A program made the position numbers. Source: Nitrospirales bacterium (GTDB lineage Bacteria > Nitrospirota > Nitrospiria > Nitrospirales > UBA8639). From it: a DNA stretch of 64,000 nt. This document shows positions 27,001-33,000 of the stretch, piece after piece. The stretch lies in NCBI GenBank assembly GCA_965223295.1, contig CBDCWC010000003.1, positions 1,024,001 through 1,088,000 on the forward strand. Direction: 5' to 3'. Every line of letters starts with the position of its first letter. Positions within the stretch are counted from its first letter, which is position 1.

Positions 27001-30000
27001 TAGGCTTAACGCTGGACTATGGCCCGTATGGGTTTATGGAACGGTATGATCCAAAATTTATTTGTAATCACTCCGATCATCAGGGGCGCTATTCCTTTCA
27101 ACATCAGCCGGATATTGGCTACTGGAATATCCGTGCGTTGGCCCAAGCCTTGTCTGTGTTGGTAGATGAGGAGGCCTTAAAACTGGCGCCGCAACTGTAT
27201 GAACAAGCCATGTTAGAACACTATGCGGAACTCATGCGCGACAAACTTGGATTGTTAGAAAATCATGCTGGCGATGACAAATTAGTCACAGATTTATTGA
27301 ACATGATGGACTCCAGTCGCACCGATTACACCACATTCTTTCGAGCGCTAGGAAATTTTCAGCAGGATACTCCTGCAGCCAATTCAATACTTCGTGATTT
27401 CTTTCTTCATCGTGACGTGTTTGATGATTGGGCCAGCCGATATCGTGAACGTTTGTTAGCCGAAAAAAGTCAGGATGCCGAACGAAAAATTCGCATGGAT
27501 CAGGTCAATCCCAAGTATGTGCTCCGCAATCATCTGGCTGAACGCGCGATTCAATTGGCGACACGGGAGAAAGACTATTCGGAAATCGATCGGCTGCTGA
27601 AATTGTTACATGATCCGTTTCTGGAACAGCTAGGGATGGAGTCGTATTCTTGTCCAGCTCCAGATGGAAGTCCTTCAATCATTGTCAGCTGTTCCTCTTA
27701 ACCCACGCAGGCGAATCCTACATTCCATATGCGACTCATCGTTATTTTTATTATTTTCATTGCACTGGTGCTGGGACCGCAGCTGTGGGTGTGGTGGGTA
27801 TTTAGGCAATACCGAAAACCTCGTGAAAATTGGCCGGGAACGGGGGGCGAACTAGCGCGTCATCTACTCAACCGGTTTGGCCTCCAAGAGATTCGGGTTG
27901 AACCCACGCCAATGGGCGACCATTATAACCCGGAAACCAAAATGGTGGGGCTCTCACCTCAACATTACAGTGGGAGATCCCTCACGGCTGCTGTCATCGC
28001 GGCCCACGAAGTCGGGCATGCTTTGCAAGATCATGATGGGTATGAGCTGTTGAAGAGTCGAACGCATCTAATCAAATTTGCTCAGAAAGCTGAAAAAGTC
28101 GGGTCGTATTTGATGTTAGGCATGCCTGTTCTTGCTGGAGTGACACGGATTCCTGCCTTGGGCCTTGCGGTATTTGTGGTTGCTATTGGCACGATGAGTG
28201 TGTCAGCACTGGTTCATCTGATTACCTTGCCGGTAGAGTGGAATGCTAGTTTCCGTCGAGCCCTGCCAATACTTGAAGGAGGGGGTTATTTAGCGCCAAC
28301 GGACATGGAGGGGGCCAGGCGGATTCTCAAAGCCGCAGCCTTAACCTATGTTGCCTCTTCGCTTTTTAGCTTGGTCAACATGTGGCGGTGGATCCGCCTC
28401 GTCCGCCGCTAATCGTAACACCCTGCCCCATTTATCCTGCCAAGCATTGTGCTCAGATTGCACTCTGCTTTCACAGTTCGGTATCCTAACCCTGTCCTTT
28501 TCCAATCAACCACACATCAGTAAGCGGCAAAACGCAATGCTATTGACGCTTACTCTAACTTGGAGCACACAACATGAAACGAATCTCTTTTTACTCTGTT
28601 CTAATCTGTATTCTCCTTTCACCAGCATTAGCCTCCGCAGGCAACCTCGAAGCCGTGCAAGCCTGCTTGTTATCCTGGAAAGATCATCCTTTTAATGGAC
28701 AAAATCCTTCTTATAGAACAGTGTCCGGGAAGTTCAAAATCTTTGGGATTGGCGAAGACATCAATGAATCAGTTGCCACTGATGACCCCGAGTTGGTCTT
28801 GATCCTGCCCAACGTCAGCGTCATGACCGGATCCAGCATGACCTTAATGAATCCCAATGGTTGGTACTGCCTGAGTTCGAAGGTCAATGTGATGTCTTCC
28901 ACGACCATCAATTTGCACTGCAATGCGCAATTGGCTTCCAGTAAAGATGGTACGACCGTCTTGGGTGGTGGGGACGATAAAGGTGTGACGGTGATGGGAA
29001 AAGCCACAATCAATCGTGTAGGATGCGAGTAAAAATCTCAAGCACTCAAACGTGCATTCAACCATGCACGTTTGAGACTGAGATGATCATCTTCGATCTT
29101 GCTCTATTCCAGAGCTACCTACTTTGTGAGTCAGTTTCTGTGTTAATTTGATTCAACAGTGCTTCGACCGGAGTTTCCAGTTGCTTGTTCTTGTTGCAGG
29201 TTTGGCAAGCTGGGACGATATTCCCCCGAGTGCTCGTTCCACCGCGCGCTAATGGCACGAGATGATCCATCGTGAGCTGGTCGGGTCCAACTACTTGCTC
29301 ACAAAAATGGCAAATCCTTTTTTGTTTTTGGGCTGTCCACCAAGAAGACTTCCGAAGCTTTCTGGCTTTATCCCGCTCCACTTTGATATGGCGCTGGACC
29401 GTTTCGTCGTCCCCTAGGTCGTAAAAATTTTTTTTGGTCATAATTTAGGCTTTGGGGCTCATCGCCTCTAGGGGCAAAGGAGAATTCTACCCTTTTTGGC
29501 AGAAAGGGAACCAGAAGTTTTCACTGAGGAGAGCATTGAATATTATAACGCACCAGAGACAAATTTGCCCATGATGATGTGGGTTCCCCAAAGCCTTGTG
29601 GCTTTTTTCAACAGCCCCTTGAAGAAATTTAGTCGAGGGCAAGGGTGAGGCATTTCGCGGAGCCTCCTGCTTTAAGAAATTCGTCCAGTTCAACAGGGTG
29701 AGGTTGATACCCTTTATTGGATAGTAAATTCATCGTCACCGGGCATCCGGTGGGAAGGACGACATGGCGATTGACACATACGGCGTTGCAGGCAAATCGT
29801 CTAGCCTCTTCCGGAGGAATAGCTAAGCGTTGAGAAGGCTGAATGCGGGATTCAATGACTTGTCGAGCATAAGAATCAAAGGCTTCTGGAAAATAAAGCA
29901 GTTCTCCCCCGCTTAATGGGCAAAAGCAGGTGTCCAGATGGTAAAACCGTTGGTCAATGAGTTCTAATGGAAGAATCTCTTTGCGAAAAATTTCGGTTAA

Positions 30001-33000
30001 ACGATCATAGGCTCCAATGTCGCTGCGCTGCCGGTATCCGGCGAACCAGACATCTTTAAAACCCAGGAGATCCCCGGCTCCCTCAAAGTAAAATGCGGAA
30101 TCCAAGGCAATCACTTCGTAGCCCTGCCTGGCAAACCAGTCGATGAAATACTCTTCTTCCCGTTGACGTTCGGTATGCCGAAAACGGCTAGGGACGGCTT
30201 TCCCATCCCAGATGACTCCGGCGTTGGCGGTAAACACCAAATCTGGCAATCCCTTGACTGGGTCCATGAGTTCAATCTTTGCCCCGACGTCTTCTTCCAA
30301 TACTTTTTTGAGCATGTGCCACTGGTTTTGTGCGAAGGTAGAGTTGGAATTATTAGATAGTCGCATCCAAGGATTAATTTCATACTCAATTCCAAAATAA
30401 TCCGGGGGGCACATTAACAGGCGGCTCATTACCTTATCCCTGCCATCCCAATTCATGTGCAAGTTCGCGTAGGAAAGATGAAGAGTCCATGACGAGTCCA
30501 ACGGCCTGAAAACTGCCACGATCACTGAGTTTCGTCGGCACGGCAGGGTTAATGTCTACACATACTGTCGGCACGGTCGCTGGTAACAAGTTGCCGGTAG
30601 CTACGGCATGCAGGGTAGACGCGACGAGCAAGGCCAGATCGACACCAGGGAGAGCGGCGCGCATCGCCTTCTGTGCTTCAATGGAATCGGTGATGACATT
30701 GGGTAGAGGTCCGTCATCACGAATCGTGCCAGCCAACACCATGTTGACCTTTTGTTGTACACAAGCTGCGACTATCCCATCGGTGATGACGCCTTGTTCA
30801 ACCGCTGCTCGGATACTGCCTATTGCTCGAATTTTGTTGATCGTGCGCAGATGATGTTCATGGCCGTGAGGAACCGATCGTCCAGCTCCTAAATTGTAGC
30901 CGAGGGACGTGCCATACAGGTTGGCTTCCATATCATGGGCTGCCAGGGCGTTTCCACAAAAAAGCACGTGAATGTAGCCTTCTTGAATGATCCAAGCTAA
31001 CGCCTCTCGGCCGCCAGCATGAACGATAGCTGGTCCTCCTGCAAATAGCACTTTGGGGGGTTCCTGGTTTCGCAACCGGCGTTCCCTAATCATTTGCATT
31101 CGCCTCGCGACATCTCCTATCACATGACGATAGGGTCGTTCAGACGAGACTTGGGCTTCCATGAAACCGAACACATCACGTTCCGCAGGACGTTCCAGAG
31201 GGAACACGCGAATGCCATCTCTACCCACCACCACGAGATCTCCTTTCTTAACCGACCCCATTGGGACCATCCTGGCAGATAGTGGTGCGGAGTTCACGAC
31301 AATGGCAAGGTCCATTTCGGTTTGATGCACATCAAGCCAGGAGCCTTGATATCGGATTTGTGTGGGGAGATGGGAGGTAGCATAAAAATTTTCGGGCAAT
31401 ACCCCATTAGCAGGGGCCGGAGTGAGAGCACAGTCCTGTTCATTTTCAACGATGGCTCCATGCGGCTGGATGGCTTCCAAAATTTCTTGCAAAAGCTGCG
31501 TGTTTGCTACTTCAATGCAGATTTTCGCTTCGGAAAGATCTTCCCGATTAGTCCCGACTTTCACATTGTTCAGAGTAAAAGTCCCTCCCAACATCACAAT
31601 AGTGTCCAAGACTTTGGCGAGAATCAGTGAGTCGATGATATGTCCCTGAAGGGTAACGGTTTGGGAAACCATGTTTGTATTGTATCACTTATCTCTGTTA
31701 ATGCCTCTCAAGAAAGAAGGTGGGTCTGTTGAAAAAAGCCGTCAGCGGTGTTCTCGCCATTTTTCCGTGCTCACGTAGGACCAGTACGCTCCGCGCGGGA
31801 AAATAGCTCCGGCCTTGCTGAACGGACTTTTTTGAACCGACCCGAAGCTCTCATGGTCAACGGGTCCCTACAGAAATATGGCCCCCGATATCTTCAGTAT
31901 TCAACAACCCCAAGGTGGATTCAAAAGCGATATCGACCAATGATATACTGCGACCAATGATATACTGAGGGAGTGTTTTGGGGCAGAGTAAAAATGAATA
32001 TTCAAACACACGAGATTGTAAGACTGCTATTTTCAGGTGTGATCATCATCGGCTTACTTGGGGTTGAAGGGAAGTTTGCGCATGCAGCACCTGGCACGGA
32101 AGTCTTTCAGGGATTTACTCAACACATCAGTGCGCAAATTGGCAAAGATAAGTCAGCATTTGCTGAGGCTGATACCTGTACCGCCTGGTTTTATAAACAT
32201 TCCAAGAAGAAGCGCCCGCCCGTTCCTGAGGCAGAAAAAATCCGTTTTGTGCCCATGGCTCAATCAGATCCTGATGCCGATTGTGCGAAGCGATATCCCA
32301 AGGGTTTGGAATCTGCACGAGAGGCTTTTGGCAATACTCAGCAACGATTATCGTTTAGCCTGACGTTTTTTCAGATGGCGCTTGTGAGCGATGGTGATGA
32401 TGACCATGCCTACAGCAATCAAGAAATGCAGGATGTCTTAGATGCATTTGGCCGCACCTATCGTAGCGGGCAATCGGTTGATCAATATGTGAGCCAACTG
32501 ATTGGACTATTTGATCACAATAGACTAGAGATGCAATTTCCGGTGTTGATGACCAGCATGCAGACTCTCATGAATAAAGGCTATCGCTTTACTAAGGCCG
32601 ATCAAACGGCGTTGAATCAGGAGCTAGAATAACATCAAGTAAAACGTGAGAAGGAAAAAGTAAGAAGGGAATGTAAGGATCAAGACGGAAATGGATCAAA
32701 AACGTTTGTTCTCTCTGGCTTTTCACATTTTACTTTTGACTTCTTACTTTATCCGTTCCAGCGCTTCACGTGAGCGGCTTCGGACGGTTTGATCCCAGTC
32801 TTCTTTCATTTTTTCTTCCAGCTTTTCCTTGGCTTCGTGAGCTCGCATTCGTCCTAAGGCCAACGCGGCACAGGCCCTCACATGCGCATGATCATCCTCT
32901 AAGAAATGAATGAGTAACGGAATAGATTCACGATGCTTGAGAATGCCCAAGTAGCTGACAGCCATTCCTCGAACACGATGTTGCTTATCCCCTAGGGCAG

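Follow-up and report, generated by a model that had tools for sequence, protein, structure and literature searches.

A conserved gene pair for a predicted route from arginine to glutamate in Nitrospirales

We analyzed a stretch of 64,000 nucleotides (the window) from a Nitrospirales genome and found two adjacent genes that likely encode the central steps of a route leading from arginine via ornithine and proline to glutamate, with the release of three ammonia. The first gene encodes a predicted ornithine cyclodeaminase (ODC) of the TIGR00300 nickel-pincer nucleotide family, and the second an ArgZ/AgrE-type guanidino hydrolase, which is probably an arginine dihydrolase (DH). This route had been proposed in a preliminary description of the window, and it is supported by the active-site residues, by the fold, by the adjacency of the two genes in 111 out of 111 genomes, and by co-loss with putA. 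The chemistry is already known and the two-gene form extends beyond the nitrifiers to other bacteria, which limits the surprise, but the presence of the pair in these organisms has apparently been overlooked. A literature search, confined to listings and the beginnings of abstracts and with the key primary papers outside its scope, gave no report of the pair in Nitrospira, and no match was obtained in the 12 of 15 supplementary files of PMC11410670 that were searched. Current annotation would hide such a route under the names “DDAH” and “TIGR00300 family protein”. If confirmed, the order that contains the main nitrite oxidizers and the comammox organisms would require nickel and have a pathway for arginine catabolism, and a small stand-alone arginine dihydrolase as well as a natural unfused pair become available for tests of ornithine channelling. 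The pair also opens a simple question for cultures, namely whether arginine feeds nitrification.

Both genes are located on the minus strand and, as had been described, they are separate. The stand-alone ODC gene (30434..31672, 412 amino acids) comes first and is followed by the stand-alone DH gene (29629..30429, 266 amino acids), an order that is the reverse of the domain order in AgrE. The ODC stop codon and the DH start codon are separated by a spacer of 4 nt (30430..30433), and the ODC stop lies partly within a run of purines. The DH start was assigned to the ATG at 30429; a longer version starting with a GTG at 30525 would overlap ODC and is not used by the homologues. The pair is flanked by an HNH-domain gene (Pfam HNH, minus strand, 29115..29441) directly 3’ of DH, and by a divergent gene belonging to no Pfam or NCBIfam family (plus strand, 31973..32632). 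Judged from the spacing, the arrangement is consistent with a common transcript and translational coupling of the two genes. Scans for sigma-70 promoters and terminators remained at chance level, and a sigma-54 site, sought by its consensus, was present in only 2 of 61 regions upstream of ODC, several of them shorter than 250 nt. An Rfam scan of positions 25000-36000 yielded one tRNA and no riboswitch.

Next, the distribution of the pair was quantified in 151 Nitrospirales genomes. Both genes were present and adjacent in 111 of them, always on a single strand and with the matched segments -5 to 258 nt apart. ODC never occurred without DH (0 of 111 genomes), and DH was retained without ODC in five genomes. 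Three pair-less genomes carried a clean deletion: in these, some 200-300 nt separate the HNH-domain gene from the flanking gene that comes next. The HNH-domain gene and the divergent gene mark the two edges of the deletion, and synteny around the latter was preserved. The best explanation is that the operon has been present from near the base of the Nitrospirales. In one genome, G068, the pair precedes genes for agmatinase and arginine decarboxylase.

Asn71 of ArgZ decides the dihydrolase chemistry. The residues mutated in 6JUZ (N71S) and 6JV1 (C264S) correspond in the alignment to N69 and C260 of DH, which also contains the His, Glu, Asp, and Arg residues of the active site. N19, R88, E116, R135, H164, D166, and C260 were invariant in 120 out of 120 homologues, and N69 was conserved in 119. 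The DH model was 46-48% identical to the N-domains of ArgZ and AgrE, in agreement with the value of 48% to AgrE given earlier, and the comparison with 6JV0 and 6LRF yielded E values of about 1e-72. The modelled structure aligned with ArgZ over 264 residues (Z 40.1, rmsd 1.3), and Z scores of 39-40 were obtained with all seven ArgZ/AgrE entries, compared to 30 with DDAH, 27 with AstB, and 26 with ADI. On the basis of its sequence and modelled fold, DH is therefore a probable arginine dihydrolase, for which ornithine, CO2, and two ammonia are the products predicted from L-arginine.

It is very unlikely that DH is instead a dimethylargininase, a deiminase, or an enzyme acting on another guanidino compound, with the ornithine for ODC coming from elsewhere. 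Public annotations of the homologues as DDAH, amidinotransferase, or arginine deiminase-related point in that direction, as do the only Pfam match of DH (DDAH_eukar, E 1.6e-8), the gene neighbourhood in G068, and a score below the cut-off of the arginine dihydrolase model NF052232 (286.5 versus 450; 261-296 for relatives). However, the score of an ArgZ-like fusion, although sufficient for NF052231, likewise falls short on NF052232 (425.7 versus 450), and the fold of DH is 10 Z units nearer to ArgZ. With the DDAH models, DH scored 45-61 bits at cut-offs of 340-450. Although the alpha/beta propeller and the Cys-His-Glu site are common to DH and DDAH (NF045658/NF045660; 1H70), the two are only 22% identical. 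The DDAH signature, an E-D pair and a Lys two residues past the catalytic His, is absent from DH, which has A68-N69 and H-L-D (D166); it is found in a separate DDAH-like paralogue of the same family with E-D and H-L-K. Asp or Lys at this H-x-D/K position distinguishes ADI-type from DDAH sites, according to PMC11659421.

The identification of ODC as a TIGR00300 member was reproduced, with a score of 477.2 at a cut-off of 410.8 and a match covering residues 1-408, and ODC also passed this model in all three relatives scanned. Pfam domains are an N-terminal LOR/SDH domain (residues 4-101), ArgZ-like_C_1st (103-185), and the Rossmann domain ArgZ-like_C_2nd (187-404). The ODC model was closest to the stand-alone enzyme of M. 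maripaludis (3C2Q; Z 41.5, rmsd 2.1, 332 residues), and Z was 35.8 with ArgZ (6JUY). Among the ODC structure matches, there was no holo structure with the nickel-pincer dinucleotide. A complex model of ODC and DH scored 0.72, compared to 0.01 for the best control; the mark set for this score was reached by 116 of 157 solved pairs and by 2 of 215 mismatched pairs. At least 69% of the contacts were common to the runs, and the partner pLDDT was at least 91. The score may, however, reflect the predictor’s memory of AgrE.

In the genome under study (three contigs, no N, completeness 100, two or three gaps unseen), larB (283 versus a cut-off of 175), larC (188 versus 90 and 140 versus 50), and larE (309 versus 150) all exceeded their model cut-offs, and larE was checked in five genomes. 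larA was not found there, whereas the positive controls responded. These lar results agree with the preliminary description, as does the location of the pair near larB and larC in relatives (52 of 57 genomes in one family). Here, larB and larC lie about 95 kb from the pair on the same contig, with larE and putA still farther away. However, the lar genes turned out not to be specific evidence for the route, as which they had been cited. larB and larC are retained in nearly all Nitrospirales genomes and are under purifying selection even without ODC, and larC is kept in 33 genomes that contain neither ODC nor LarA. Therefore, their presence is no proof of the cofactor of ODC, and it points to a second nickel-pincer enzyme. 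We give an even chance to such an undescribed enzyme being the reason that larB and larC persist after the loss of ODC. The aldo-keto reductases of five genomes offered no clear candidate, and the neighbourhoods of nine lar loci contained mainly housekeeping genes, by similarity to the genome under study. The lar genes kept without a known client may perhaps be the more open lead.

The retention of larB and larC under selection would also fit an ODC that works with NAD+, with the lar genes serving only another enzyme, and AgrE was crystallized with NAD+ according to the title of entry 6LRG. Nevertheless, we regard this as improbable: TIGR00300 is curated as nickel-pincer dependent, the dinucleotide has been reported in an ODC (as cited in PMC13524815), larC is present in all 111 ODC genomes, and in one genus larB, larC, and ODC are all missing (0 of 7 genomes each).

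The last step of the predicted route requires PutA. The claim that the genome contains putA held with regard to the gene, which encodes a bifunctional protein of 994 amino acids with both domains and a Pfam Pro_dh match above the cut-off; PutA was also the best NCBIfam match, but its score remained below the cut-off (582 versus 747). putA was present in 109 of the 111 pair-bearing genomes, in contrast to 17 of 40 pair-less ones. On the larC tree (59 genomes, 11 independent pairs), putA followed the pair in 7.7 cases and opposed it in 0.1, with a median p of 0.008 in a sign test for which p ranged up to 0.125. General genome reduction may account for part of this co-loss. An ornithine aminotransferase gene (rocD) was not found in the 151 genomes, so that ODC represents the only ornithine-catabolic route found, and rocD was also discarded as the route of the five genomes with DH alone; in these, DH can thus serve something beyond the route described here. 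Because proB, the one proline-synthesis gene included in the search, is present in 147 of 151 genomes, ODC is not needed for making proline, and a biosynthetic role was set aside as unneeded.

Structure and residues suggest that the Cys-His-Glu site of DH would hydrolyze L-arginine, yielding CO2 and two ammonia besides ornithine. ODC, probably docked on DH by its LOR/SDH domain, would cyclize ornithine to proline and one ammonia, with a cofactor that, judged from its family, is probably the nickel-pincer dinucleotide made by the unlinked LarB, LarE, and LarC, and PutA would oxidize proline to glutamate. The likeliest use would be salvage at a low level: arginine released by protein turnover or brought in with peptides would return its nitrogen and carbon to the cell’s own glutamate pool. 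N. marina expresses an adjacent TIGR00300 protein of 412 amino acids (3-7 spectral counts) and a “DDAH” of 266 amino acids (0-8 counts; PMC8115632, supplement file 4), which are probably the orthologues of ODC and DH.

The same enzymes could also operate in a route that ends before glutamate, either in an ornithine-ammonia cycle that buffers nitrogen, in which ornithine would re-enter arginine synthesis, or with proline as a compatible solute. Ornithine release has been discussed as a side activity of AgrE (PMC8262935) and could be eased by two separate genes, five genomes hold DH alone, and in N. marina the expression of ArgF/G/H is several-fold above that of DH; moreover, PutA is not seen by name in the proteome table, in which the word “proline” does not occur. 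We consider this rather unlikely, as putA and the pair go together on independent branches, proB is nearly universal, and a cyanophycin store was not found in five of five genomes tested (no TIGR02068 match above the cut-off, which no control genome passed either).

A third possibility concerns the use of the ammonia: external arginine could supply ammonia-oxidizing partners, or the ammonia monooxygenase (AMO) of comammox organisms themselves, and replace urease and cyanase. Neither urease nor cyanase was found in the genome under study, with responding positive controls, as had been noted. Three ammonia are formed per arginine (PMC8262935), the pair is present in 23 of 25 AMO-bearing genomes, two Opp/Nik-type ABC systems are encoded here, and tryptone stimulates N. 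marina, according to PMC8115632. However, the idea that the pair stands in for urease had to be abandoned, because urease was equally common with and without it (57 of 111 versus 20 of 40 genomes; median p of 0.5 for independent pairs on the tree). Also, the genome under study lacks AMO, protein abundance is low in N. marina, and the annotated genes around the pair in the window include no transporter. The search of this genome gave no ABC binding protein for polar amino acids (the sole SBP_bac_3 match was MltF-like) and no APC permease, and a cyanobacterial-style arginine source, cyanophycin or a basic amino-acid ABC importer, was not detected. Internal salvage is therefore likelier than ammonia supply, to which we assign a low probability. 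Equally doubtful is a joint reading, in which peptide-borne arginine is an unrecognized ammonia source for nitrification and a second undescribed nickel-pincer enzyme exists. If arginine were such a source, comammox Nitrospira would oxidize the three ammonia themselves, strict nitrite oxidizers would hand them to ammonia oxidizers, and arginine would join urea, cyanate, and guanidine.

The pair is best compared with cyanobacterial AgrE/ArgZ (Alr4995, Sll1336; NF052231) and PutA. It shares both catalytic modules, the LOR/SDH domain, which is the middle domain there, the DH active-site residues, the co-lost PutA, and the predicted products (proline, CO2, and three NH4+). Yet the two ORFs do not reach the cut-off of NF052231 (286.8 and 385.7 bits versus 1025), and no fused version was present at 80 loci. 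The pair had been regarded as a split ArgZ/AgrE, but this origin was rejected: grouping ODC with the fused C-domain clade, a group picked after viewing a quick tree, failed the AU test (p 0.0002; 37 rows, LG+G4), DH also stood apart from the fused N-domains, and the same operon occurred at 12 of 60 loci outside the Nitrospirota. Stand-alone nickel-pincer ODCs are the closest relatives of ODC in fold and are likewise accompanied by larB, larC, and larE, but the methanogen and actinobacterial loci examined have no DH gene next to them. The mycobacterial Rv2323c is a stand-alone family member like DH, which remains below the cut-off of its “dimethylargininase” model (NF045659; 241.7 versus 300). 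Its gene is part of a roc cluster and does not follow an ODC gene, and the passage of carbon and nitrogen from arginine into proline and glutamate depends on Rv2323c (PMC4569260). The unfused operons of Planctomycetota, Omnitrophota, Armatimonadota, and others, for which literature searches gave no description, have the same order, strand, and spacing as in Nitrospirales. In the tree, the DH proteins of these operons and of Nitrospirales fall into one starred group, with identities of 45-53%; the operon is patchy there, but near-fixed in Nitrospirales. At one Omnitrophota locus, putA lies divergently adjacent to the ODC-DH operon.

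Two adjacent, separate genes were found, as the preliminary description had stated, and both lie on the minus strand: a 412-aa ORF (31672-30434) for a predicted ornithine cyclodeaminase (ODC) and, beginning 4 nt past its stop codon, a 266-aa ORF (30429-29629) for a predicted ArgZ/AgrE-type arginine dihydrolase (DH). This gene order is opposite to the order of the domains in the fused cyanobacterial enzyme AgrE. The ODC passed TIGR00300, the nickel-pincer ornithine cyclodeaminase model, with a score of 477.2 versus a cut-off of 410.8, in agreement with the earlier claim. The two best models of the DH were both under cut-off, namely NF052232 (arginine dihydrolase, 286.5 versus 450) and mycobacterial dimethylargininase (241.7 versus 300). 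Because P0147, an ArgZ-like fusion protein that passes the bifunctional ArgZ model, also remains under 450 on NF052232 (425.7), the missed cut-off of the DH counts little.

The AlphaFold model of the DH (pLDDT 88) matched all seven ArgZ/AgrE entries with Z-scores of 39-40 and rmsd values of 1.3-1.4 over 264 residues, versus Z-scores of 30 for DDAH, 27 for AstB, and 26 for ADI. N69 and C260 aligned with positions altered in two mutant structures, respectively N71S in 6JUZ (with a trapped intermediate) and C264S in 6JV1. Asn71 is reported to set the dihydrolase chemistry (attributed to Zhuang 2020). N19, R88, E116, R135, H164, D166, and C260 were invariant across the 120 best homologues, and N69 was present in 119 of them. 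The DH carries A-N and H-L-D at positions where E-D and H-L-K occur in a DDAH-like paralogue encoded by a genome from the same family as the source genome, and Asp versus Lys at the latter position is a difference between ADI and DDAH according to a passage in PMC11659421. The paralogue is a separate gene with a DDAH signature (L248:1047-1820, genome G037), and weak second matches in the DH search suggest that such a gene is common in genus g2.

The nearest structure to the ODC model (pLDDT 89) was 3C2Q from Methanococcus (Z 41.5, rmsd 2.1, 332 residues); ArgZ/AgrE came next with Z-scores of 34-36, and deoxyhypusine synthases reached 18. A nickel-pincer dinucleotide in the family of the ODC is mentioned, as cited work, in a part of PMC13524815. 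A complex model of ODC and DH scored 0.72, whereas the best control scored 0.01; the score mark applied is reached by 116 of 157 solved pairs and 2 of 215 mismatched pairs. The contacts agreed to at least 69%, partner pLDDT was at least 91, and the predicted complex would seat the DH on the N-terminal LOR/SDH domain of the ODC. As the AgrE structure has been solved, the complex model may reflect likeness only.

The preliminary description had regarded the pair as a split version of the cyanobacterial enzyme, a view that did not hold. A constraint that placed the ODCs of Nitrospirales together with fused C-domains was rejected (AU p 0.0002; LG+G4, 37 of 105 rows), and the unfused DHs formed one starred group separate from the fused N-domains in a tree of 36 rows without outgroup, from which 11 Nitrospirota loci were omitted as redundant. 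Named genomes gave 590 ODC loci, and the best 80 of them, a set tilted toward near relatives, contained no fused gene; the DH lay directly downstream of the ODC in the same order at 20 of 20 Nitrospirota loci and at 12 of 60 others, the latter being a lower bound because several loci stop just past the ODC. The 12 comprise eight Planctomycetota and one each of Omnitrophota, where a divergent putA adjoins the operon, Armatimonadota, a deltaproteobacterium, and Methylomirabilales (L107, genome G154, flagged unpublished and contributing one row per tree). In the phylum of genome G151, labelled Nitrospinota, 9 of 101 genomes contained the ODC, and the DH followed at 6 of the 9 loci. Thus, the two-gene operon is not restricted to nitrifiers; it probably resembles AgrE plus PutA in its working, but lies outside the fused family. 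Three genomes of the Nitrospinota-labelled sample have a Nitrospirales-type pair with 64-68% identity (L157, L158, L160), and another locus has a Nitrospirales-type ODC without DH (L093); these may reflect gene transfer from one nitrite-oxidiser lineage to another, or contigs assigned to the wrong bin. Searches of literature listings yielded no report of the pair in Nitrospira; such operons may already be listed by Zhang 2018, Burnat 2019, Zhuang 2020, Lee and Rhee 2020, or Desguin 2025, or in the supplements of these papers.

In a phylum sample, the ODC was present in 37 of 41 members of the order Nitrospirales versus 1 of 160 others. The DH was matched at 1e-10 in 121 of 151 genomes of the order, and 116 were left after removal of one contig-end fragment, one remnant, and three genomes with weak DDAH-like matches only. 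The ODC was found in 111 of the 116, always directly upstream of the DH on the same strand; counted among the 111 are G146 (TAG within DH), G107 and G082, each with one gene broken into two pieces, and a small number of partial matches. The other five have the DH alone, e.g. L047 and L048 (genus g11) and L049 (genome G051). Genus g11 has lost larB and larC (0/7 each) and retained putA (7/7), and no rocD was found in it. Loss of the pair is genuine in at least four genomes: in G031, G046, and G140 the flanking genes close up, and in G052 the last 47 codons of the DH remain between the usual flanking genes, with the ODC gone (L249:4561-4701). In genome G068, the pair leads straight into genes for a deoxyhypusine-synthase-like protein, a pyruvoyl arginine decarboxylase, and agmatinase, the whole being an arginine/polyamine cluster (L051:3360-8817).

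We consider it rather probable that the pair performs arginine-catabolic chemistry. AgrE yields one CO2 and three NH4+ (PMC8262935), and in a mycobacterium, according to part of PMC4569260, a stand-alone relative was needed for the flux from arginine to proline. The putA gene was present in 109 of 111 pair-bearing versus 17 of 40 pair-less genomes. A larC tree of 59 genomes (57 of family f1's 63, six pair-bearing genomes being left out, plus two outgroups) provided 11 independent pairs. The putA gene moved with the gene pair in 7.7 of these and against it in 0.1, with a median p of 0.008 and values from 0.004 to 0.125; this association is limited by its reliance on one marker gene and by general genome reduction. 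The proB gene occurred in 147 of 151 genomes, and rocD in none of the 151.

In the N. marina proteome table (PMC8115632, supplement file 4), a 412-aa TIGR00300 protein had spectral counts of 3,4,3 in air and 7,7,5 at low O2 (adjusted p 0.55), a 266-aa DDAH-annotated protein with an adjacent gene id had 3,0,2 and 5,6,8 (adjusted p 0.18), and ArgG and ArgH had 25-44; no row of this table contains the term 'proline'. The first two proteins were linked to the pair from their annotation, their length, and their adjacent gene ids rather than from sequence.

Neither larA, urease, cyanase, an arginase-family protein, cyanophycin synthetase, nor AMO was found in the source genome, which bears out the absences of larA, urease, and cyanase described earlier. 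The implied role as a stand-in for urease was rejected: urease, matched in 77 of 151 genomes at 1e-50 (74 over cut-off), was equally common with and without the pair (57/111 versus 20/40), and no link was found among independent pairs on the larC tree. The source genome contains two Opp/Nik-type ABC systems and two sodium-symporter-family genes; no APC permease was found in it, and its sole SBP_bac_3 match is MltF-like. Given the low expression and the lack of cyanophycin, the pair is more likely to salvage arginine from within the cell or from peptides than to release ammonia in bulk. In the available portion of a survey of nitrifier organic-nitrogen use (PMC10753782), arginine is named for polyamine synthesis only. 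For the source genome, the label 'nitrite oxidiser' is reasonable, because an NxrA peptide motif is present in two NxrA-sized frames and homologues are labelled Nitrospirales. As 23 of 25 AMO-bearing genomes contain the pair, the comammox reading, in which the ammonia would serve the cell's own AMO, is kept as an unlikely alternative.

As had been claimed, the source genome contains larB, larC, and larE. The first two (L044, contig C3, 1149317-1152679) lie about 95 kb from the pair; at greater distances, the same contig carries larE and a putA of 994 aa. In family f2 the pair is near lar genes, again as described, with larC within 10 kb in 52 of 57 genomes. Across the order, larB (143/151) and larC (144/151) exceed ODC (111/151) and larA (11/151). 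Without ODC or LarA, larC was kept in 33 genomes, including all five of family f4; larB is retained in such genomes as well, and larE was intact in all three of these that were checked. The dN/dS of larC was about 0.22 in two pair-less clades versus 0.15 in 14 hand-picked pair-bearing comparisons; larC is under purifying selection in genomes lacking ODC and LarA. The order gpsA-larB-larC-pdxA is kept across all four families. These findings suggest a further nickel-pincer enzyme as the simplest reading of the kept lar genes; no such client was found among the aldo-keto reductases of five genomes and at nine lar loci. The constant neighbours gpsA and pdxA encode NAD(P)-linked dehydrogenases, but their constancy may be plain synteny. 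Proteins with a LarA N-domain were confined to family f2 (11 of 151 genomes, e.g. L041-L043, genera g13 and g21).

The window also encodes a 427-aa protein with Csm6 6H and HEPN domains (9906-11189, minus strand), and no further cas families were found among the scanned ORFs. A lysine 2,3-aminomutase-like radical SAM gene is followed by a two-domain dCTP deaminase gene (422-2851, plus strand). Upstream of the ODC, a non-coding stretch of about 190 nt (31722-31912) resembles 24391-24590; both, and likewise a third at about 38617-38801, match one place in genome G031 at 78-83%, and the three are probably copies of a dispersed small repeat element. A tRNA gene (25888-25958, plus strand) precedes genes for a SelO protein adenylyltransferase, a Zn_peptidase_2 protein, a small protein of no family, and an HNH protein (26199-29441), and the block 25888-29441 is partly syntenic in relatives of family f1, with or without the pair.
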